64,000 nt of DNA from Deltaproteobacteria bacterium (GCA_034670305.1 JAXMNT010000006.1:64001-128000); one strand, 5' to 3'; shown: positions 3,701 to 58,614, counted from the first letter of the stretch. Translations and numbers: made by a program. Notes: generated from the sequence alone by a model not told the origin.

Positions 3701-6700
3701 CCGGGTGCGCGCCGGGGACTTCGTCGAGCGCAAACTTCCAGGCTTCGATCGCAGCGTCGGGATCCTCGCCCCGCCACTTGGCCCGACCAGCCTCACACCA
3801 CTCGAAGAACGCGGCGTCACCGGTCGAGTCAGAGGCGGCCTGTTGCCAGAGCGCGCCGGCGGCTGCTGGTTCGTTGGCCTCGAGCATCCGGACGAGCGCG
3901 CGTCGTGCCGGTGCGCCGCCCTCGTCCGCCGCCAGCTGCAAGGCGGCGCGTCGGTCGTCGCCCGCGAGTCGGGCCGCGAGTGCGAGAAGCACCCCCAGGC
4001 GCTGTTCGGGGGCCGCGCGCTCCGTCGCCGCCCGAAGGTGGGTCACGACTTCGGCGTCGTCGCCGGCCTTGGCGGCCAGGTCCAGCAAGAGGAGCGCTGT
4101 GGTGAGCGGTGCCTCGCCCCGTTCCGCGGCGGCCAGCAAGTACGCCCGCTCGTTGGATGGATCCGAGGTCGCGAGTTTGGCAGCCGCTTCGACCGCGGTG
4201 CCCTCCCCCTTGTGTTCCTCGCTCGGCGCGCTGAGCAGGGCGCCGTGTTTGCGCGTGAGGATCTCGCGGACCACTCGGATCGTGTCGAGGGTCTCGTCTG
4301 CGAGGGCCGCGTCCTTGAGGGCGGTCTGCGCGCCTTCGATGTCTTCGTTCTGTGCCCGGGCTTCGGCCAGGTCCAGCAACGCGAGCGCCCGGTTCGCGCC
4401 GCCGGTGGCTTCCGCAAGGGCGGTCAGCGCGGCGGTGCGTGCGTCCGCATCGCCCGCCCGGAGGGCCGCGAGTGCCTTCAACTTCAACCCCGCCGGTCGG
4501 GTGGCACCGTCGAGCAACGCCGTCGCTTCCGCCGGCTTCTTGGCGGCGAGCAACCAGCGCGCGGCGAGGCGGCGAAGGCCTTCCTGCAGGGAGGGCGTCT
4601 GCATCTGCGCCGATGCGGCCGAGAGCGCTTCGGCCCGGTCGACGGGATCTTCCGCCACGCGTGCCCGACCGAGGTTCGCTGCAAACCCCGCATGCCGAGC
4701 CGCCGCTTCGGTGTACGCCGTTCGGGCGCGGGCGGTCTGACCGGCCCGCTCCGCGTCTCGCGCCACGCGGGTCAACAAGGTGGAGGCGGCGACGTCGTCC
4801 TTCCAAACCTCCGCGGCCTTCTGGAGGGACACGGCGCCAGGGAGCCCGCGTCCCTGCGCACGCGCGGCTTCGTTCCACAGCAGGCCGGCCGGCACGCTGG
4901 GGTGTGCGGCCATCGCGGCGCGGCACGATCGTTCCGCGCCCTCCGCGTCGTCCATGCGCGACAGCTGGATCTCCGCGAGCAGCGTCAGCACGAGGCTCTT
5001 GTCGAGTGCGGAGAGCGGAAGGGCGGCCTCCGCTTGCAGCCGGGCCACGACCTCGTCCCAATCGCCGCGGTGCATGGCGGCGCGCCGGAGTGCGCGCAGG
5101 GCGAGCAGGTCGCGCGGGTCCGCCTCGTTGGCTTCGACGAACAGCGCGTGTGCTTCGTCGTGGCGCGCGAGCCGTTCGAAGATCTCGGCGGCGGCGACGA
5201 GGCACCGCGCTTTGCCTGTCGTGGGGCCGGACGCCGCGAGGCGCTTGAGCATCTCGCCCCGCTTGAGCAGCGTCTCGGGGTCGGTTCCGACGAACTCCAG
5301 CTTCTCTTCGCGGGGCTTGCGGTGTCGGACCGTTCGCTGCGCGGTGGCTGCACCTTGGTCTCGGGCGGCCGCCGCAGGATCCACGGCGGCCTCTGCCGCA
5401 TCGGCGTCGAACTCGAGCTCGGGCCCGTCGTCGTCTTCCTCCGCGACCTCGAGGGCTGGGGCATCGTCGCCCTCGTCGCCGAACTCGAGCGCTGGGCCGT
5501 CGTCGGATTCGCCGAACTCGAGCTCCGGGCCGTCGTCGTCGGGCTCGCCGAACTCGAGCTCCGGGCCGTCGTCGTCGGGCTCGCCGAACTCGAGCTCCGG
5601 GCCGTCGTCGTCGGGCTCGCCGAACTCGAGCTCCGGGCCGTCGTCGGGCTCGCCGAACTCGATCTCCGGGCCGTCGTCTTCTGGTTGGCCGACCGCGATC
5701 TCGGGCTCGTCGTCCAGTGCGGGCGGGTCCACGCGAAGCATGGGCGGGACCGGAATCTCTGTAGATATCGGCTCGAGCGATTCCCCCTCTGCGAGGGAGA
5801 CCTCCATCGTCGGCTCGTCCTGGCGAGGCGGCTTGGAGGACGTGCCGACGCGCGGCGCTGCGTCCGCCTCTGCCACGGCGTCTTCTGCGTCCTTGTCGAG
5901 GTCCCCGAAGAGAAGGTCGAGTTCTTCGTCCGGCTCGGCGAACGGGTCGAGGAGATCGTCCTCGCCGCTGGCGCTCGGACCCAGTTGGCTGGGCGTTGGC
6001 AACGAGAACGCACCCTTGGCTTGCGGACGTGGGAGCTCCGCTTGCGGAAGGCTGGGCGCGGGCAGGGCAGGCTGCGGCAGCCGGGGCGGCTTCGGTCGCG
6101 GCAACCCAGGCTTGGCCAGGGGCGGCGGCGCGGGCGGACGGGCGATGACGGGCGGTGGAGCGACCGGGGCGGCGACGGGCGGAGGCGCGACGGCCGGCGG
6201 TGCGACGGCCGGGGGCGCGACGGGCGCAGGCGCGATTCTCGTCGACTCGTCGTCGTCTTCGTCCTCGCCGAAGAGACCATCCAGATCCAATTCGACCGCA
6301 TCCCGGTAGTCGTCTGGGACTTTGCTTGCGCGCGGCGCGTCGCCTTCGTCTCCGGTCGTGCGGAGCTCCTGCAGCGAGGCGATGAGGTCTTCGGGCACCG
6401 CTGCGATGGCGGTGGCTTCGTCGCTGTCGTCGTCGCCAAACGAAGGGAATGCCTCGCGTACCTTGGCGGGGCTTGGCGGTGTGATCTTCGGCGCCTTCGG
6501 CTGCGGGATCTGCGGGACGGGCTTCTTCCGCGCTTCCAATCCGGGATCGGGCTGGTAGAGCGGACCTCGGCCGGCAGGGCGCGGTTTGGGCTTCGGCGCG
6601 GAGGGCTCCGGTGCAGGCGGTACGGTTTGCCGGAGCGGCGCGGCTTTCGCCTGCGCGGCGTCCTCGAAATCTTTCTCCCACGCGTCCAGCGCGTCGTCGA

Positions 6701-16445: not shown

Positions 16446-16787
16446 ATGGAACTGCATCACCTGGCGCTGAGGACCCGCGACGTCGAGCGGCTCGTCGCGT
16501 TCTACCGCCGGGTGTTCGATCTCTTGGTCGTGCGCGAAGGCCCGCACGGCTGCGGCCAAAGCGTGTGGCTACAGCTCGAGCATGGGGTGCTGATGATCGA
16601 ACCCGCAGCCGAAGACGAACCGTCGATCGATCCGCAGAGCCTCGAGCTCGTCGCGTTTCGGGTCGACCTCGCGCGGCGCGCGGAGATCGAAGCGCGGGTG
16701 TCGGTCGAAGCCCGCACCGAACACACGATCTACTTCCGAGATCCCGACGGCCGCCGCCTCGCCGTGTCCACCCACCCGCTCGACTGA
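16446..16787 (+). CDS. VOC/glyoxalase family protein
   Basis: [18 protein letters not shown] at the N-terminus and [11 protein letters not shown] near the C-terminus. Confidence 0.85.
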
Positions 16788-16810
16788 GCACGGGCGCGGC
16801 GACGCAAGGC

Positions 16811-16956
16811 CGGCATCGGCATCGGCATCGGCATCGGCGTCGGCTTCGGCGTCGGCTTCGGCGTCGGCTTCGCCTTCGGCTTCGGCTTCGGCATCGGCAT
16901 CGGCATCGGCTCCGGCATCGGCATCGGCTTCGCCTTCGGCTTCGCCCTTCGGCTTC
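16811..16956. repeat. Degenerate hexamer tract (DTCGGC)n between convergent genes
   Basis: About 24 units of ATCGGC/GTCGGC/TTCGGC. Confidence 0.95.
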
Positions 16957-16971
16957 ACGTGTTTGCTCGGA

Positions 16972-18351
16972 TCACCCGCCAGCGGCCACTTGGCGCCGCG
17001 CCACTGCAACCCCAGAGCGTGCCCCGCGCCAACGTTTGTCGGCCGCTCGGGCCCCGTGCGAGCGGAGCGACACCGGAAGCCCGGACGCGTCTTCGACGAA
17101 GCGCAGGAGCGCTGCTTCGCTCCCGACCGAAACCGTCCCGACCCCCACCTCGTTCAGGTGCGCCGTCAGCGCACTCTGGTGGTCCAAGTCTTCGGGACCG
17201 CCCAGCGGAAGTCGGTTCCGCAGCAGTCCCTCGTACCGGTCGACCGCACGCCACGACGCGTCGACGCGATCGAGGTGTGTCACCGCCAGCGCGTCCATGG
17301 GCGCGCAGTCGAGCGCGTAGCGGAGCAACACTCCGTCGAGCCAGCCGCGCCGGAACCCGCCCTGCCACCCCGTGTCGCCGTTGTGCGGTTCCGGTGTGCG
17401 TGCGTCCAGCGCACGGCACTCGGAGGGAAACGGCCCCTCTCCGTGGCGCGTCAGGTAGCTGCGCACCACCCCGAGCCGCACCGCCTCTCGGCCCGTCCCA
17501 TCCAGCATCTCGAGCGGGCGGGCGGCGGTGCAGGTGCTCCAGGTCGTGTGCGGATGGAAGCCGCGCCACTCGTCGAGCAGCACCCCCTGCGCGCCTTCGA
17601 ACAGGATCGGGTCGGGGCCCCGTGCGATCGCCTCGAAGTAGCCGCCGTCGACCAGCGCCGGTCGGTGCATGAGCGGCGCCAGCGCTTCCACGAACCGCTC
17701 GATCATCTCTTCGTCTTCGAGCAGGGCGAGTTCCACCGCGCTGAGCGGATCGGACGCATCGAGACCCAAGCCCGCGGCGATCGCCCGGGCCCGTTCGCGG
17801 ATGACGCGAAGCTTCCGGGGAAGGGCGGCCGGTCTCCACAGATCGGCCGCATGGAGGACCGCCGCGGGCGCTTCGAGCGACGACCGCACCGTCTCTCCGA
17901 CGCCGACTCCGACGGTGCCGTGGACCGGGACGCCCGCATGTGCGCGGGCGCGCTCCCGAAGCCGCACGAGCGCGCGTTCGTAGGGTGTGGTGACGAGCGC
18001 TCGGCCGTCGATGGTCCACCGTCCGAGCGCGTCGTGCACCCCGAGCCGCGCAAGCCGCGCCGCCTCTTCGAGGAGCGCAAGCGGCTCGAGAACGAAGTGC
18101 GGTCCGTGGTGGGTTCGCACGCTCGCAAGGAAGCTGGCCGCGCCGAACTGCGCGAAGCAGTGGTGACGCCCATCGCCGTCCACGACGTTGTGCCCGGCCT
18201 GTGCGCCGCCGTTCGCGCGCACGACGTGGATGGGCTGCAGGCCGCCCTCGGCATGGGCCAAGATGTCCCGCGCCAAGAAGTCGACGGTGGTGCCCTTGCC
18301 GCAGTCGCCGAACCCCAGGTCGACGACGATCCATGTTGCGCGTTCCGACAT
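16972..18351 (-). CDS. Adenylosuccinate synthetase-like protein (divergent PurA paralog)
   Basis: GFGDCGKG, RANGGAQAGHNV, EGAQGVLLD, TRHGEGPFPSE, RGWLD and VTHLD motifs. Strong SD (AGGAGG) upstream. Confidence 0.85.
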   Translation of the reverse strand: MSERATWIVVDLGFGDCGKGTTVDFLARDILAHAEGGLQPIHVVRANGGAQAGHNVVDGDGRHHCFAQFGAASFLASVRTHHGPHFVLEPLALLEEAARLARLGVHDALGRWTIDGRALVTTPYERALVRLRERARAHAGVPVHGTVGVGVGETVRSSLEAPAAVLHAADLWRPAALPRKLRVIRERARAIAAGLGLDASDPLSAVELALLEDEEMIERFVEALAPLMHRPALVDGGYFEAIARGPDPILFEGAQGVLLDEWRGFHPHTTWSTCTAARPLEMLDGTGREAVRLGVVRSYLTRHGEGPFPSECRALDARTPEPHNGDTGWQGGFRRGWLDGVLLRYALDCAPMDALAVTHLDRVDASWRAVDRYEGLLRNRLPLGGPEDLDHQSALTAHLNEVGVGTVSVGSEAALLRFVEDASGLPVSLRSHGARAADKRWRGARSGVAVARRQVAAGG

Positions 18352-18422
18352 CGTTCTCCTCCTCGAACGCGTCCGCCGCGGACGGTCCAGGCCTTTGGGA
18401 CCGGCGGCGGACGGTTCTCCGA

Positions 18423-19379
18423 CTAGCGGGTGTGGCCGCTCGCCATCGCGGCGGGCGGGAAGGGCGCGCGTTCGACCGCGCGTTCACCAAGCGTGTCCGC
18501 GAACGGACCGATGGCGGTGACGATCGCGCCGACCCGTTCGCGTTTCATGCCGGTCGCAGTGAGCCGTTCGGCCACCTCGTCCACATTCGCGAGCGCGCCT
18601 TCGCACAGACCCACGAGCGCGGCGGAGGCGGCGCAGGTGTCGGCGGCGCTCCCGAGCACAATCGCGTGTTCACCGAGCAGCTCGCGCCACTGGGCACCAC
18701 ACCGTCCCGCGCGGCGTTCGTCCGGAATGAGGAAGAACGGTTCGAAGCTGACCTGCAGCTCCGCGATGACGTCTTCGATCGGCATGTCGTCGCCCAGCGC
18801 GTCGCCGATGAGGCCGTCCACTTGAGACCGGGCGATGCGCGGGTAGGGGTGCTCGTCGCCGGTCATGAAGAAGTAGCCACGCTTCTTGCGCTTCTCCCAA
18901 CAGTCCATCGCCGTGTGCCGCGCCGCGAAGTACATGCCGAGCTCGTACGACTCCTGGAAGGTGCCGCCCCCGCCGCCCTCGAGAAAACTCCAGGTCAGCC
19001 ACTGGTCCATCAGCTCCGCTTCGGACTCGAACTGACCGACCTGCAGCGGCGCCCGATCGCTGTTCGCATCGCCGACGGCCATGAAGAGCACCTGCGGGCT
19101 CGCGATGCCGCAATCGAGCAGGAGCTTCATGAAGGTCGGAAGCTCCTTGCGCGCCAACAGATCCGGGATGTTGCCCATGGAGCCGGTGACATCGAGCGCG
19201 AACACGAGCCCGAGGCTGTTCGGATGTTCGTCGCTGTCGCGGCACTCCCGCACCCGCACCCCTTTGGGGTTCATCAGCGGATGGCAGGAGCGCTGCTTGA
19301 AGACCTCTTCGCGCGCGGTGTGCGCCCGGCCCGTCGTGAGCTTGTGGTGCGCATCAAAACTGTAACTTCCATATCCCAT
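18423..19379 (-). CDS. vWA-like (MIDAS) domain protein
   Basis: LVFALDVTGSMG (DxTxS), AVGDA, GQFES, GGGG..ESYEL and FMTGDE motifs. GAGG SD before MGYGSYS. Confidence 0.8.
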   Translation of the reverse strand: MGYGSYSFDAHHKLTTGRAHTAREEVFKQRSCHPLMNPKGVRVRECRDSDEHPNSLGLVFALDVTGSMGNIPDLLARKELPTFMKLLLDCGIASPQVLFMAVGDANSDRAPLQVGQFESEAELMDQWLTWSFLEGGGGGTFQESYELGMYFAARHTAMDCWEKRKKRGYFFMTGDEHPYPRIARSQVDGLIGDALGDDMPIEDVIAELQVSFEPFFLIPDERRAGRCGAQWRELLGEHAIVLGSAADTCAASAALVGLCEGALANVDEVAERLTATGMKRERVGAIVTAIGPFADTLGERAVERAPFPPAAMASGHTR

Positions 19380-19416
19380 GGCAACCTCGCTTTCGTTCTC
19401 TCGGTGGTGGGGTTCC

Positions 19417-20448
19417 CTACGCGTGCTTGCGTGATGCAGGCAGAACGAAAGGAACGAACTTGGGTGGTCCCCAGACCGCCTCGGCGGCCTTCGAGACTTG
19501 GTCTTTGAGGGCCCATGCGTCGTCGGTCGGCGGGCGGTCTGCGCAGGTCTCGAGCAGCTTCCGGACCGGCGCCGGAGCGCGCGCGCCATGGGTGAGCCAG
19601 AGGAGGGTGCGAGCCAGCATCGCCAGATCGAGCGCGGGCTCGGGCGGCTTGGTCGCGGCGGTGGGGTAGAGCGCGGCGAAGCGCGTGCTCCGGGCCGGCA
19701 AGAGGGAGCGGGTGCGACCAAGCCGCCAGGTCGTCGCGCCCCATCCGAGCAGCACCACCGCGTGCGCGTCGGGGCGCACGAGCAGATGCGGTGGCAGCAC
19801 CGTGCCGTGCACGACGCCCGCACGGTGCAGCCAGCCCAGCATGTCGAGCACCCGCTTCCACATCCAGACCGCGTGGCGGGGATCCACCCCGCGCGGGAAC
19901 GCATTTCGGATGTCACAGGCCGTGGCTTCGAACCCAGCGCGGAATCGAAACGCCGTCGCCAGCGGACCGCCCGACCGGACCTTGCCGGGCGTGCGCGATC
20001 CCGCCGCGTCGTGCAGCCGGAGCGCCCCGTGGGCGATGGGTTCTGGGAGCAGTCGTCGGAAGAACTCGGCGCCTTCGGTCTCGGATGCGCGGAGCTCGCG
20101 GACCACCCGGACTTCCCGCGCGAGCAGGTCGGCGTCCGCTTCCGCGCGCAACACCTTCAAAGCCACCCGCTGGGTCAGCCGCGTGTCTCGGTGGGCGAGA
20201 AACACATCGCTCGAGTCGCCGCGGCCGAGCCGACCGTCGATCACGTAGACGTGTTTGCCGAGACCGCAGCGCGGTTTGCCGGCGTCTTCTTTGCGGCCCG
20301 CCCAGGGCGGCACGACCACAGGGCGCAGCCGCCAGGCGTCCGGGACGTCCACGACCACGTGGTCACAGAAGGCGCAGACGAGCGCCGTGGCGCGGGTCGG
20401 AGGGAGGGGCGCGGTGCACTTGGGACAGGTGAGGGCGGTGAGGGCCAT
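19417..20448 (-). CDS. Protein-kinase-fold protein (pseudokinase) with an N-terminal Zn ribbon
   Basis: CPKC...CAFC, then LGRGDSSDVF, VALKV and LLAREV. HRD is replaced by HGT and DFG by LGW. Confidence 0.75.
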   Translation of the reverse strand: MALTALTCPKCTAPLPPTRATALVCAFCDHVVVDVPDAWRLRPVVVPPWAGRKEDAGKPRCGLGKHVYVIDGRLGRGDSSDVFLAHRDTRLTQRVALKVLRAEADADLLAREVRVVRELRASETEGAEFFRRLLPEPIAHGALRLHDAAGSRTPGKVRSGGPLATAFRFRAGFEATACDIRNAFPRGVDPRHAVWMWKRVLDMLGWLHRAGVVHGTVLPPHLLVRPDAHAVVLLGWGATTWRLGRTRSLLPARSTRFAALYPTAATKPPEPALDLAMLARTLLWLTHGARAPAPVRKLLETCADRPPTDDAWALKDQVSKAAEAVWGPPKFVPFVLPASRKHA

Positions 20449-20451
20449 GGC

Positions 20452-20472
20452 TTCGTGTGACAACTACACTAA
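20452..20472. promoter_or_regulatory. 21-bp operator-like box 1 (GT-N7-AC) overlapping the -10 element
   Basis: Minus strand reads TTAGTGT-AGTTGTC-ACACGAA. Confidence 0.6.
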
Positions 20473-20493
20473 GCAGCGGCGCGGGGCCGTCAA
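20466..20493 (-). promoter_or_regulatory. Sigma70-type promoter of the pseudokinase-vWA-PurA-like operon
   Basis: TTGACG-16 nt-TAGTGT on the minus strand. Confidence 0.55.
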
Positions 20494-20509
20494 GACGGCT
20501 GGGGCGAAT

Positions 20510-20530
20510 TAAGTGTCTTTTGGACACGAA
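20510..20530. promoter_or_regulatory. 21-bp operator-like box 2 (GT-N7-AC palindrome)
   Basis: Plus strand reads TAAGTGT-CTTTTGG-ACACGAA, with core palindrome GTGTC-N5-GACAC. Shares AGTGT and ACACGAA with box 1. Confidence 0.6.
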
Positions 20531-20573
20531 GTCGGAGGGCCCTGCAATACAGGGTGGAAACTGCGGATCTCAG

Positions 20574-20882
20574 GCCGAAGCCGAAGCCGATGCCGACGCC
20601 GACGCCGACGCCGATGCCGATGCCGAAGCCGATGCCGACGCCGATGCCGAAGCCGACGCCGACGCCGAAGCCGAAGCCGAAGCCGAAGCCGAAGCCGACG
20701 CCGAATCCGAATCCGAAGCCGACGCCGAATCCGAAGCCGAAGCCGACGCCGAAGCCGAAGCCGAAGCCGACGCCGAAGCCGATGCCGATGCCGGCTGTGT
20801 CCGACTCCGACTCCGAAGGAGAGGATGTGCGGTTCCCGTGCCCGTGCCCGTGCCCGTGCCCGTGCCCGTGCCCGTGGCCGTG
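20574..20882. repeat. Compound hexamer tract: (GCCGAH)n, then (TCCGAC)n, then (CCCGTG)7
   Basis: Main tract 20574-20793, second tract 20835-20876, directly 3' of the protease gene. Confidence 0.95.
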
Positions 20883-20895
20883 GTTCGAACGATCG

Positions 20896-22431
20896 TCAGG
20901 TTCGGCGGCGGAGCCAGAGCAGGGCGGCGAAGCCGAGTACGGGAAGCGGGCTGCCGGAGGACGACTGGGTTCGGCAGCTGCAGCCGCCGTCGGCGAGCCC
21001 GGTTCCCGCGTCCACCACACCGGCGTCCAAGGTGCCGCCGTCAGCGCTGCGACCCGCATCCGGATCGGTGCCAGCGTCCGTGCCCGGTCCCGCGTCTGCG
21101 TCTCCCACCGCGTCGAAGGTCAGCTCGAGTTCGAACGGGTCGATGTCCGAGTCGTAGGCGTCGAGGAAGAGGTGGTAGGTGCCGGTGGGCAAGGTCGCGG
21201 TGATGCGGGAGCCGCGATCAGTGTCGACGTCGATGTCGTCGTGGCAGTCGACTTCGCGCCCGTCGCAGCCTTCCCGCAGGTACAAGAGCGAGTCGAAGCC
21301 GCGGCTGCGCGCGACGAACCGGGTCGTGGACGAGAGCGTGAACTGGAACACGCGGTCGGGTCCGAGCCCACCACAGCTGCCCATCGCATCGGGGCCGTAC
21401 CCAACCAAGGTGCCGCTCACCGTTTGGTCGACCGCGTCGAGCGTCTCGGCCGCCTCGCAGCGATCGCCGAGGAGCGGTTCGACGCATGGCCCGTCGCATC
21501 CACACAGCTCGGAGTCCACGCCGGGCGTCGCGCACAACGCCTCGAGCGCAGGCCGCACGTAGGTGAGTCCTTCGCCGTCGTCTTCCGGCGGCGGATCGAT
21601 GACGTTGATCACGTTGCAGCCGCCCGCGTCGACGTAGTCGGTCTCGCCTCCGCGCAAGAGCGCGACGAGGTTGCCTTCGAGGTCGAACACCCCGGAGCCG
21701 GAGTTGCCATTGAACGCGTCGACCGACGCCGTCAGCCACGACGCGTCGCCGCTCGTCCACGTGACCTCGCCGGTCGTGTCGATCTTCATCGGGATGCCGT
21801 TGGGATGTCCGATGAGCGCGAGCGCTGTTCCGTCCGCCAGTCCGCTCGGCAAGAGCCGCACCGTCGCCGGCGTGTGGCCGACCACGGGCCGGTCGAGCTC
21901 CACGATCGCGTGGTCGACCCGGTCGTCGTCGAAGTACGCGAGCACCCGCGCGCAGCGGTAGACGTCGTCGGCGCCGAGGTCGACGAGTGCGCCATCCGCC
22001 ACGTAGCGCCAGCCGAAGATCCACACGCTCTCGCTGCAGTCGCTCGGCGTGTCCATGCAGTGTCCGGCGGTCAGCAGGTAGCGGTCGTCGATCAACGTGC
22101 CCGAACAGGTGCCGGGTTCGAGCTGCTCCCGAAACGCCACGCCCTCACACAGCGACTGCGCTTCGGCTAACGTGCGCGTGTAGTCGATGCCCACGACCGC
22201 GCCGGACTCGTCGAGGTTGTCCGGATCGATCTTCATCGCCACCGACTCGGCCGCCACCGACCTCAGTACTGCGCTCGGATGCGCGAACACTTCCGTGCGC
22301 CCATCGGTCTCGTACACCACCGGCTGTGCGATCGCCCCCGTGGGCTCGGGACCGCAGCCCATCCAGAGAAGGGCGGCGCACACCAAGCCGGCTCCGGCGC
22401 TTGCAGACATCCGACCGCGAGATGCGTCCAT
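20896..22431 (-). CDS. Trypsin-like (S1) serine protease, lipoprotein-type signal, MYXO-CTERM tail
   Basis: CSGTLI..LLTAGHC, DHAIVEL and GNSGSG catalytic triad motifs. C-terminus GGCSCR...[13 protein letters not shown]. Confidence 0.88.
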
Positions 22432-47588: not shown

Positions 47589-47657
47589 CCGGTTTCGGGG
47601 TCGGTTTCGGGGTCGGTTTCGCCTGCAGTTTCGGTTTCGGGGTCGGCTTCGGTTTTC
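47589..47657. repeat. Short degenerate hexamer tract (NTCGGN)n
   Basis: GGTTTCGGGGTCGGTTTCGGGGTC..., directly 3' of the 47662 stop. Confidence 0.8.
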
Positions 47658-49080: not shown

Positions 49081-49352
49081 GCCGAGGCCGATGCCGACGC
49101 ACCGTGGCCGAGGCCGATGCCGAAGCCGATGCCGATGCCGATGCCGATGCCGATGCCGATGCCGATGCCGATGCCGATGCCGATGCCGATGCCGACGCCG
49201 ATGCCGACGCCGATGCCGACGCCGATGCCGACGCCGATGCCGCGACCGCTTCCGGGACCGCCTCCGCTTCCGCTTCCGCTTCCGCTTCCGCTTCCGCTTC
49301 CGGGACCGCTTCCGCTTCCGGGACCGCTTCCGCTTCCGCTTCCGCTTCCGCT
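49081..49352. repeat. Compound hexamer tract: (GCCGAY)n, then (TCCGCT)n
   Basis: Directly 3' of the kinase stop at 49362. Confidence 0.95.
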
Positions 49353-56825: not shown

Positions 56826-57099
56826 CGGCATCGGATCGGCGTCGGCGTCGGGGGTCGGAGTCGGGGTCGGCTTCGGCTTCGGCTTCGGCTTCGGCTTCGG
56901 CGTCGGCTTCGGCTTCGGCTTCGGCTTCGGGTTCGGCGTCGGCATCGGCATCGGCATCGGCATCGGCATCGGCATCGGCATCGGCATCGGCATTGGCATC
57001 GGCGTCGGCGTCGGCGTCGGCGTCGGCTTCGGCGTCGGCTTCGGCGTCGGCATCGCCTTCGGCTTCGGGGTCGGCTTCGGCACGGGCACGGGCACGGGC
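56826..57099. repeat. Compound hexamer tract: (DTCGGC)n, then (CACGGG)3
   Basis: About 40 units, intergenic. Confidence 0.95.
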
Positions 57100-58394: not shown

Positions 58395-58614
58395 CGCTGA
58401 CGCCGACGGCGACGCTGAGGCCGACTCCGAAGCCGAAGCCGAAGCCGATGCCGATGCCGAAGCCGATGCCGGTGCCGAAGCCGAAGCCGACACCGACACC
58501 GAAGCCGACACCGAAGCCGACACCGACACCGAAGCCGACACCGACACCGAAGCCGAAGCCGACGCCGACGCCGAAGCCGACGCCGATGCCGAAACCGACG
58601 CTGAACGCCGATGC
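58395..58614. repeat. Degenerate hexamer tract (RCCGAH)n between convergent genes
   Basis: GCCGAA/GCCGAT/GCCGAC/ACCGAC units. Confidence 0.95.

Follow-up and report, generated by a model that had tools for sequence, protein, structure and literature searches.

PurZ, a paralogue of adenylosuccinate synthetase (PurA), makes a non-standard product in Z-genome phages. In PMC12884076, Asp13 is described as essential in PurA and is Ser in 100% of phage PurZ sequences. A quite different arrangement is the TerY-P triad, which, as set out in PMC11090510, consists of the TerY vWA protein, a PP2C phosphatase and a Ser/Thr kinase with a C-terminal Zn ribbon. A third described system is the NrtR regulon. 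According to PMC2330246, NrtR recognizes palindromic sites of 21 bp that have GT-N7-AC as their core, and its binding in vitro is suppressed by ADP-ribose. Features recalling all three systems meet at positions 16,972 to 20,530 of a 64,000-nt stretch of DNA from a Deltaproteobacteria bacterium (GCA_034670305.1; G+C ~69%), the whole of which is here called the window. The locus is a three-gene cassette that encodes a Zn-ribbon kinase-fold protein (KIN), a vWA protein with a metal ion-dependent adhesion site (MIDAS), here called VWA, and a divergent PurA paralogue (PURL).

We propose that this locus is one of the copies of a cassette that is self-contained and moves horizontally. VWA and PURL would form its core, usually preceded by KIN, which would be catalytically dead and nucleotide-binding. 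The best-supported new statement about the cassette is that it is controlled by NrtR, which we infer from its operators, and hence that it is linked to nicotinamide adenine dinucleotide (NAD) and ADP-ribose. The explanation as a whole, that is, a mobile cassette under NrtR control, encoding a ligase that uses something other than aspartate and serving the NAD or nucleotide pools, is the best available one; we hold it tentatively, as plausible and a little short of probable. The features of the locus, in window coordinates, are as follows.

16972–18351, minus strand: PURL, an open reading frame (ORF) of 459 aa
18423–19379, minus strand: VWA, an ORF of 318 aa
19417–20463, minus strand: KIN, an ORF call of 348 aa, with a probable true extent of 19417–20448
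20455–20469: operator-like box 2, minus-strand reading GTGTAGTTGTCACAC, overlapping the putative −10 and the transcription start region
20466–20493, minus strand: putative promoter found by eye, TTGACG (20493–20488), a 16-nt spacer and TAGTGT (20471–20466)
20513–20527: operator-like box 1, minus-strand reading GTGTCCAAAAGACAC, palindromic without a mismatch (5+5) and with GT-N7-AC as its core

The three ORFs share the minus strand and are separated by 37 nt (KIN/VWA) and 71 nt (VWA/PURL), as expected from an earlier note on this DNA, which spoke of three closely spaced, co-oriented genes. GGAGG-like ribosome-binding sites precede VWA and PURL. KIN likely starts at the ATG at 20448, giving an N-terminus, MALTALTCPKC, that resembles those of its relatives. 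Cassette genes frequently abut or overlap in relatives, and the best protein and locus matches are those of Sandaracinaceae and other Myxococcota. Rfam gave no match at E ≤ 1 in 16500–21300.

The earlier note gave the operon its own promoter and paired operator boxes. The promoter stands as a candidate read by eye; a sigma-70 consensus scan of 16500–21200 returned 0 sites, and terminator-like sites there are at chance level. The boxes are borne out. They are two 15-bp palindromes, both upstream of KIN, and are the only matches to GTGT-N7-ACAC in the 64-kb window. Both fall in the ~110 nt between a tract of hexamer repeats and KIN, with box 1 sitting 20 nt upstream of the putative −35. A search for inverted repeats in 20430–20600 with a 6-nt seed found none, the arms of the boxes being only 4–5 nt. 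Among the 60 matches to the core in the genome, the cassette boxes are the only pair within 150 bp.

An extended, 19-bp pattern, [AT][AC]GTGT-N7-ACAC[GT][AT], has 5 sites in the 7.93-Mb genome, and two of these are at the cassette. Another, TTAGTGTACAAAGAACACTAT (TTAGTGT-N7-ACACTAT; G000:C1:280334-280352, L185:835-853), ends 2 nt before the start codon of pncB, the first gene of the operon pncB-prs-nadE-nrtR-pncA. This operon contains the genome's only NrtR_WHD gene (99.6 bits). A further site precedes a PF15891 (Nuc_deoxyri_tr2) nucleoside 2-deoxyribosyltransferase-like gene (G000:C1:360564, L186), and the last one lies inside an ORF on contig C27. The predicted NrtR regulon outside the window comprises the pncB operon and the PF15891 gene.

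Other genomes offer comparable arrangements. In G004, the closest relative fetched, TTAGTGTCTATGGTACACGAA is found at the box 2 position before KIN. The same position is occupied in the Sandaracinaceae-type loci L027 and L026 and, by eye, with one mismatch in L025 and L029. GTGT-N5-9-ACAC occurs in 6 of 65 upstream regions of other genomes, against 0.44 expected. On a plasmid of Agrobacterium vitis, a divergent NrtR gene (PF21906, 2e-15) adjoins the cassette, and two 21-bp palindromes lie in the NrtR/KIN spacer. In the one Rhodococcus operon examined, a perfect 21-bp palindrome with the GT-N7-AC core, TTTTAGTCGTTTAGACTAAAA, lies upstream, and the fourth gene has sub-threshold NUDIX (E 0.0018) and NrtR_WHD (E 0.0037) matches in the right order. 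VWA, PURL and a Nudix gene follow one another in 70 of 73 Rhodococcus/Nocardia-type loci, and a KIN homologue is detectable by tblastn in 25 of these loci. For the Alphaproteobacteria, Nudix adjacency was judged on three plasmid records, the Acetobacter one being without a Nudix gene; a locus scan with the A. vitis VWA returned one locus. The link to Nudix/NrtR genes that the earlier note had raised is upheld in two ways, as NrtR-type boxes at the present locus and as an adjacent NrtR or NrtR-like gene elsewhere.

To summarize, GT-N7-AC palindromes lie in the putative promoter of the cassette and an NrtR gene is present in the genome. The case for NrtR control is built on the position of the boxes, on their pairing and on their match to the box of the nrtR operon. 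The NAD/ADP-ribose link follows from this predicted control, and the cassette is probably ADP-ribose/NAD-responsive.

The second line of evidence comes from the active site of PURL. PURL matches PF00709 at 165 bits. It scores far under the cut-offs of the NCBIfam purA equivalogs NF002223 and TIGR00184 (124.1 vs 402 and 93.2 vs 395.55), and on the PurZ model, NF038379, it reaches 30.4 bits against a cut-off of 300, with residues 8–71 alone covered. The PURL family profile matches E. coli PurA (1ade) at 2.4e-60 and also Yersinia PurA (3hid), the range extending to 5.2e-61. In PHROGs, the family is phrog_1211, labelled with a PurZ-type name. Signatures were compared between 24 PURL sequences, drawn from bacteria, plasmids and phages, and 3 canonical PurAs, with the profile aligned to E. 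coli PurA. The correspondences, E. coli PurA first, are as follows.

Asp13 and Lys16 (P-loop GD.GKG): kept in PURL as D16 and K19
Asn38: Gln in PURL
His41: kept in PURL as H54
GTTGRGIGP: HG(S/T)CG.G.GE in PURL, with T129 changed to C
Arg143: unconserved in PURL
Gln224: kept in PURL (EGAQG)
GTYPFVTSS: GFHPHTTWS in PURL
ATTGR.RR, the aspartate loop: (W/Y)-Q-G-x-F-R in PURL
TRVG: TRHG in PURL
TKLD: THLD in PURL, with K331 changed to H
Asp333, which binds guanine: kept in PURL

One change is in the L-aspartate-binding loop, which contains Thr300, Thr301 and Arg303 of E. coli PurA. The roles of the residues compared are those in the E. coli enzyme. In PURL, the T300/T301 equivalents are the invariant W329/Q330, and R303 is lost. 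The loop position reads W329, Q330, G-x-F-R in 24/24 PURL sequences and ATTGRPRR in 3/3 canonical PurAs; the Arg retained in the PURL loop corresponds to Arg305 or Arg306, depending on where a one-residue gap is placed. D16, the Asp13 equivalent, is invariant in 44 sequences, and the equivalents of Lys16, His41, Gln224 and Asp333 are invariant or nearly so. Judged by these signatures, PURL is neither a working PurA nor a PurZ, the latter because the Asp13 equivalent is kept. It apparently no longer uses aspartate, and the replaced loop fits the earlier note's suggestion of a nucleophile other than aspartate. PURL is also not the sole PurA of the genome; a canonical purA lies on another contig (G000:C4:66359-67591, 582 bits).

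The two partner proteins are each built on a recognizable fold. KIN has an N-terminal Zn ribbon (CxxC...CxxC), then a protein-kinase fold. The ribbon cysteines C13, C16, C30 and C33 (numbering of the 348-aa ORF) are nearly invariant. The AlphaFold2 model, with a pLDDT (predicted score on the local distance difference test) of 89.3, is matched by Foldseek to VRK1, PknG, PknB and CK1 (E 5e-10 to 2e-8). The Pfam Pkinase score, 16.8 bits, is under the 31.7 cut-off, and the PHROGs match is phrog_3043, 'kinase' (8.8e-21). The G-loop Gly (G82), the VAIK Lys103 and the α-C Glu117 are retained. The HRD and DFG aspartates are absent; the HRDLKPxN position reads H219-G-x-x-x-P224-x-H226, i.e., HG(T)xxPxH, and the DFG position reads G-W. 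His219, His226 and His234 are invariant in the alignment of relatives. Because the two aspartates are missing, KIN, on its sequence, is not capable of acting as a canonical phosphotransferase, and the earlier note was right to call it a pseudokinase. It probably still binds nucleotide.

VWA carries the motifs DVTGS...GGGT...TGDE, with the MIDAS formed by D63-x-T65-x-S67, the GGGT near residue 140 and T173-G-D175-E. D63, S67 and T173-G-D175 are conserved in the alignment, and T65 is nearly invariant. It has a conserved 55-residue N-terminal extension and a helical C-terminal part. The AlphaFold2 model (pLDDT 92.2) is matched by Foldseek to the integrin beta I-domain and the collagen VI vWA domain at ~E 1e-5. 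In VIA-align it gives Z 15.4 and a root-mean-square deviation of 3.0 over 193 residues, and all of the top 50 chains are vWA domains. VWA thus has the Rossmann-like fold and the MIDAS motif that define the vWA superfamily. It has no match in Pfam, including the vWA models, or in NCBIfam, and matches phrog_2971 in PHROGs at 6.5e-57. Of 1.84 billion cluster representatives, 835 match the family at E ≤ 1e-30, and the number rises to 2105 at E ≤ 1e-3; the protein atlas matches are solely to unnamed or 'VWA domain' clusters. A complex prediction for PURL and VWA scored 0.04 against a mark of 0.32 and weighs neither way.

Trios of this kind in other phyla had been mentioned by the earlier note, and a gene-neighbourhood search confirms them. 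With these and the canonical purA on another contig, neither of the two outcomes that the earlier note had named as refuting its reading is seen. Two bacterial samples were used, 41 related genomes and, separately, 72 loci from a scan of one genome per species. VWA is strong in 6 of the 41 relatives, including the present genome, and a seventh holds a weak, different vWA. In all five other VWA-bearing relatives, the order KIN-VWA-PURL is kept at the primary locus, two of the five having a tandem second VWA. The PURL profile is bimodal over the 41 genomes, with 7 genomes at 543–623 bits and canonical PurA at ≤195 bits. Each of the 7 PURL-bearing genomes holds a canonical PurA too, and 6 of them hold VWA; the remaining one has its PURL at the very edge of a 9010-nt contig.

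The 72 loci come from Myxococcota, Verrucomicrobiota, Burkholderiales, Vulcanimicrobiota, Acidobacteriota, Leptospirales, Fibrobacteria and Chloroflexi. KIN is upstream of VWA in 71 of them, the exceptional locus beginning 120 nt before VWA. PURL is downstream of VWA in 63, and the same number have the order KIN-VWA-PURL. Of the nine loci without PURL, four end at a contig edge and five have room for it. No coherent gene follows VWA in these five, and a PURL-class gene is found elsewhere in each of the five genomes (553–622 bits vs ~177 for canonical PurA). Across the 72 loci no fourth gene is conserved; there is only local synteny among 8 Myxococcus-type loci. Identity of the cassette proteins across phyla is ~60% and their distribution is patchy; the cassette looks horizontally mobile.

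Several copies depart from this layout or are damaged. VWA is frequently duplicated (L018, L020, L032, L037, L047 and others), in tandem before PURL, after PURL or alone; the second copy after PURL is seen in Myxococcus and Pyxidicoccus. In-frame stops occur at VWA codon 27 (L087:6001-6978) and KIN codon 143 (L093:1123-2091), and one PURL has a single TGA (G045:C60:4051-5358, L101). The stop-bearing copies could be decaying genes or assembly errors.

The cassette is also found in phages and on plasmids. VWA matches 219 phage records and PURL 224, with ~200 of each being Mycobacterium phages of cluster C1; some of the PURL matches in other phages are weak and are to other PurA-type genes. Plasmid records holding VWA number 21, and megaplasmids are among the carriers. 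Representative gene orders are as follows.

Mycobacterium phage Patter: gp263 'serine/threonine kinase', gp264 VWA, gp265 (88 aa), gp266 'PurA-like adenylosuccinate synthetase'
Rhizobium phage RHph_TM30 (L106:1-4000): HIRAN-domain protein, VWA, PurA-like
Vibrio phage: unknown protein, VWA, PurA-like
Rhodococcus and Tsukamurella plasmids: KIN-like, VWA, PurA-like, NUDIX
Acetobacter plasmid: the trio, with no Nudix gene nearby and an AbiEii gene close by
Rhodovulum plasmid: divergent NUDIX gene; the gene table, which is incomplete, lists nothing PurA-like
A. vitis plasmid (L109): divergent NrtR, KIN-like, VWA, PurA-like, then AAA_5 and DUF5682

Patter gp263 matches the KIN profile at 5.5e-37. 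In RHph_TM30, genes annotated as phosphoribosyltransferase-like and as nicotinamide mononucleotide adenylyltransferase/NUDIX lie within 4 kb of VWA-PURL. On the A. vitis plasmid, a MoxR-type AAA_5 ATPase and DUF5682 come after the cassette (L109:7364-10757), and VgrG of a type VI secretion system (T6SS) is nearby. The KIN homologues of Patter (gp263, L105:2772-3902) and of the Rhodococcus plasmid (L108:3912-4994) are without the Zn ribbon and have an N-terminal H-P-D motif, J-domain-like by eye only. Pfam DnaJ is matched by neither of the two; Pkinase is matched by gp263, and no family by the Rhodococcus homologue.

How the parts may work together is proposed as follows. The cassette's own promoter would be covered by the two NrtR-type operators and repressed by the genome's single NrtR. 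Induction would come when ADP-ribose accumulates, i.e., when NAD is being cleaved. PURL would bind guanosine triphosphate (GTP) and move the γ-phosphate to an oxygen of a nucleotide-like substrate, and the activated position would be attacked by a nitrogen nucleophile other than L-aspartate. That is, the phosphoryl transfer of PurA would be retained, and the nucleophile and part of the substrate would differ. The PurA pocket for the 5′-phosphate of inosine monophosphate (IMP) seems to be remodelled in PURL, which makes plain IMP an improbable substrate; a compound derived from NAD or ADP-ribose is a possibility. VWA would be an obligate companion of PURL, either as a regulator or chaperone that binds peptides in a Mg2+-dependent manner or as the acceptor itself, and KIN would be a ligand-binding adaptor. 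Biologically, the cassette would likely remodel or repair the nucleotide/NAD pool when the breakdown of NAD puts the cell under stress, and an activity of this kind would serve bacteria and large lytic phages alike.

A number of observations count against this explanation. As to the operators, the two GTGT-N7-ACAC matches in the window compare with 0.61 expected, and at least two are found in 12 of 100 shuffles. The bare core is not enriched genome-wide (60 vs ~62 expected), and for the 19-bp pattern a rough composition estimate gives ~1.4 expected sites against the 5 found. The upstream regions of other genomes that carry the core are only six of the 65, and these six fall into two kin groups, Sandaracinaceae-type and Vulcanimicrobiota. 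The A. vitis palindromes, TTAGAC-N9-GTCTAA, are without the GT-N7-AC core. The clade to which this window belongs has no conserved Nudix gene next to the cassette (72 loci). As to the integrity of the cassette, PURL is unlinked from KIN-VWA in 4 genomes, with no VWA and no recognizable partner within its 1.5-kb flanks, and stand-alone VWA paralogues without KIN or PURL in the flanks fetched occur at L019, L021 and L022.

The alternative that survives best, and that we nevertheless consider unlikely, is an abortive anti-phage or stress module of the TerY-P type, in which KIN and VWA would sense an invader and PURL, as the effector, would drain GTP or IMP or make a toxic nucleotide. Modules that combine a vWA protein with a kinase are a recurrent element of conflict systems, and a defensive function is described for TerY-P-like ones (PMC11090510); however, no PP2C is conserved in the present module (the three genes by Pfam; the 72 loci), the kinase is catalytically dead and its Zn ribbon is N-terminal, so the likeness to TerY triads that the earlier note drew does not carry over. 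The N-lobe of KIN has weak PADLOC matches to PD-T4-6, Mad6 and PglW (best E 4.1e-11, 41 bits, strongest over residues 72–126), but these span residues ~70–127 only, and neither VWA nor PURL has a PADLOC match. The A. vitis cassette beside AAA_5, DUF5682 and T6SS VgrG, and the AbiEii gene near the Acetobacter one, speak for a defence role; yet no defence gene is conserved beside the cassette across the 72 loci. In the window, the neighbours are an aromatic amino-acid lyase, an SDR protein, a hydrolase, a glyoxalase, a trypsin-like protease, MYG1 and DUF2071, and these look like housekeeping genes. The patchy distribution, with ~60% identity across phyla, is transfer-like, but the carriers include ~200 lytic mycobacteriophages as well as Rhizobium and Vibrio phages, which is unusual for abortive infection. 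Nudix-helix-turn-helix regulators have also been proposed as ADP-ribose sensors of conflict systems (PMC9503650). On balance, classical abortive defence is argued against because of the lytic phages, the missing PADLOC matches of two of the three genes, the housekeeping-like neighbours and the lack of a conserved defence gene beside the cassette, and the anti-phage role put forward by the earlier note is not upheld.

A less probable proposal, and one we would back only with reluctance, is protein–nucleotide conjugation. PURL would join an activated purine nucleotide to the α-amine of the N-terminal Gly that VWA exposes after Met removal, VWA then being the substrate. A Met-Gly start is present in all VWA copies examined (81/81 bacterial and 3/3 phage, the phage copies at 30–40% identity), and G2, G4, Y6 and S7 do not vary among the 48 sequences aligned. 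However, in the AlphaFold2 model the chain is packed against the domain from residue 11 onward (pLDDT >95), which leaves residues 1–10 alone as a looser part (73). The pairing of VWA and PURL is constant across lineages, and the W-Q-G-x-F that replaces the aspartate pocket offers a less charged surface, but PURL is encoded apart from VWA in the 4 genomes mentioned above, which fits a soluble product equally well.

Within the proposed NAD-pool role, one specific chemistry can be formulated, and we regard it as a long shot. PURL would be a GTP-dependent 'N-ligase' acting on ADP-ribose, whose anomeric oxygen would be phosphorylated; a nitrogen nucleophile, nicotinamide for example, would then displace the phosphate to yield NAD+ or an NAD analogue. 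The nucleophile would be held by the invariant Trp-Gln-x-x-Phe in place of the aspartate site, the anomeric oxygen may instead belong to a related NAD breakdown product, and VWA and KIN would gate the enzyme. Finally, we consider it very improbable that PURL is no more than a second isozyme of adenylosuccinate synthetase that shares its transcript with two genes unrelated to it: public records label homologues adenylosuccinate synthetase, and the PF00709 match and the kept equivalents of the P-loop, His41, Gln224 and Asp333 agree with it, but the equivalog scores, the T300/T301/R303 equivalents replaced in every member, the changed N38, T129 and R143, the canonical purA in 7/7 PURL-carrying genomes and the linkage to VWA across phyla and phages all speak against it.

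The surroundings of the cassette add little to its definition. The earlier note saw no other purine genes nearby, and there are none within ~5 kb. It also had the operon bounded on both sides by hexamer tracts. The tracts, 6-nt repeat arrays, are real; those near the cassette come first in the following list, and those of the last line flank another gene.

16811–16956: hexamer tract near the cassette
20574–20793: hexamer tract near the cassette
20835–20882: hexamer tract near the cassette
47590–47655, 49081–49352, 56836–57081 and 58395–58611: hexamer tracts elsewhere in the window

Their units are GCCGAA, GCCGAT, CGGCTT and similar, in 8 to 37 copies with all six frames open, and they often form oppositely oriented pairs around a gene or operon. 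As boundaries of the module they are ruled out by the four further tracts in the window and by the locus of G004, which has none. By their sequence distribution, the tracts are a feature of the intergenic DNA of this genome, not of the cassette. A separate tandem repeat lies at 5408–5714, with a 36-nt unit in 8.7 copies and nested periods of 69, 105 and 141 nt.

No functional study of the cassette was found in the literature, supplementary files apart; the clade may be visible in the phage tree of PF00709 that supplements PMC12884076. In the search listings, the label 'PurA-like' occurs in phage genome records and genome announcements only. What is added here is the genome-level co-occurrence, including the split trios, the signature table across clades, the exclusion of PurZ and the NrtR operator evidence. 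PURL would be the second PurA-paralogue clade after PurZ, larger and with a different active site, and the cassette reaches across no fewer than eight bacterial phyla, its carriers also including megaplasmids and phages in the hundreds. The NrtR link offers a concrete entry point, with ADP-ribose as candidate inducer, a predicted regulator and a few NAD-breakdown products that could be the substrate. Tractable carriers are Myxococcus, Variovorax, Rhodococcus jostii RHA1 and, on M. smegmatis mc2 155, the C1 mycobacteriophages. If the product were a new nucleotide, a protein–nucleotide adduct or a rebuilt NAD, this would bear on the contest between phages and bacteria over NAD and nucleotide pools. 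Should the N-ligase chemistry hold, the cassette would be a third, unrelated route of NAD reconstitution, induced through NrtR in bacteria and carried by phages to outlast NAD-depleting immunity.

It remains to set the cassette beside the described systems. PURL shares with PurA the fold, the whole-length alignment and the P-loop Asp/Lys, His41, Gln224 and Asp333; it differs in the changed aspartate loop, in being a second copy beside a canonical purA and in its association with a vWA gene. Like PurZ/PurZ0 of the 2-aminoadenine pathway in Z-genome phages, it is a PurA paralogue carried by phages. However, PurZ has Ser for Asp13 (PMC12884076), whereas PURL has an invariant Asp. PurZ also still uses aspartate, whereas PURL has lost that site.

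The cassette resembles TerY-P in being a compact, mobile module of three genes, two of which encode a vWA/MIDAS protein and a kinase-fold protein with a Zn ribbon, but its third gene is a PurA paralogue rather than PP2C, and in KIN the ribbon is N-terminal and the catalytic aspartates are missing. As in NrtR regulons, the operators are GT-N7-AC palindromes, and the same box precedes the genome's own pncB-prs-nadE-nrtR-pncA; unlike in those regulons, the genes are not known NAD enzymes, and the cassette operators are predicted. The genes of the cluster C1 mycobacteriophages (Patter gp263-gp266, Catera gp250) come from the three families of the cassette and are arranged in its order, with 39% identity for VWA, ~40–43% for PURL and the profile match already given for KIN. 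The phage kinase-fold protein differs in having no Zn ribbon and in keeping the catalytic-loop Asn and a DFG-like Asp, and in these phages a small extra gene, gp265, stands between VWA and PURL.

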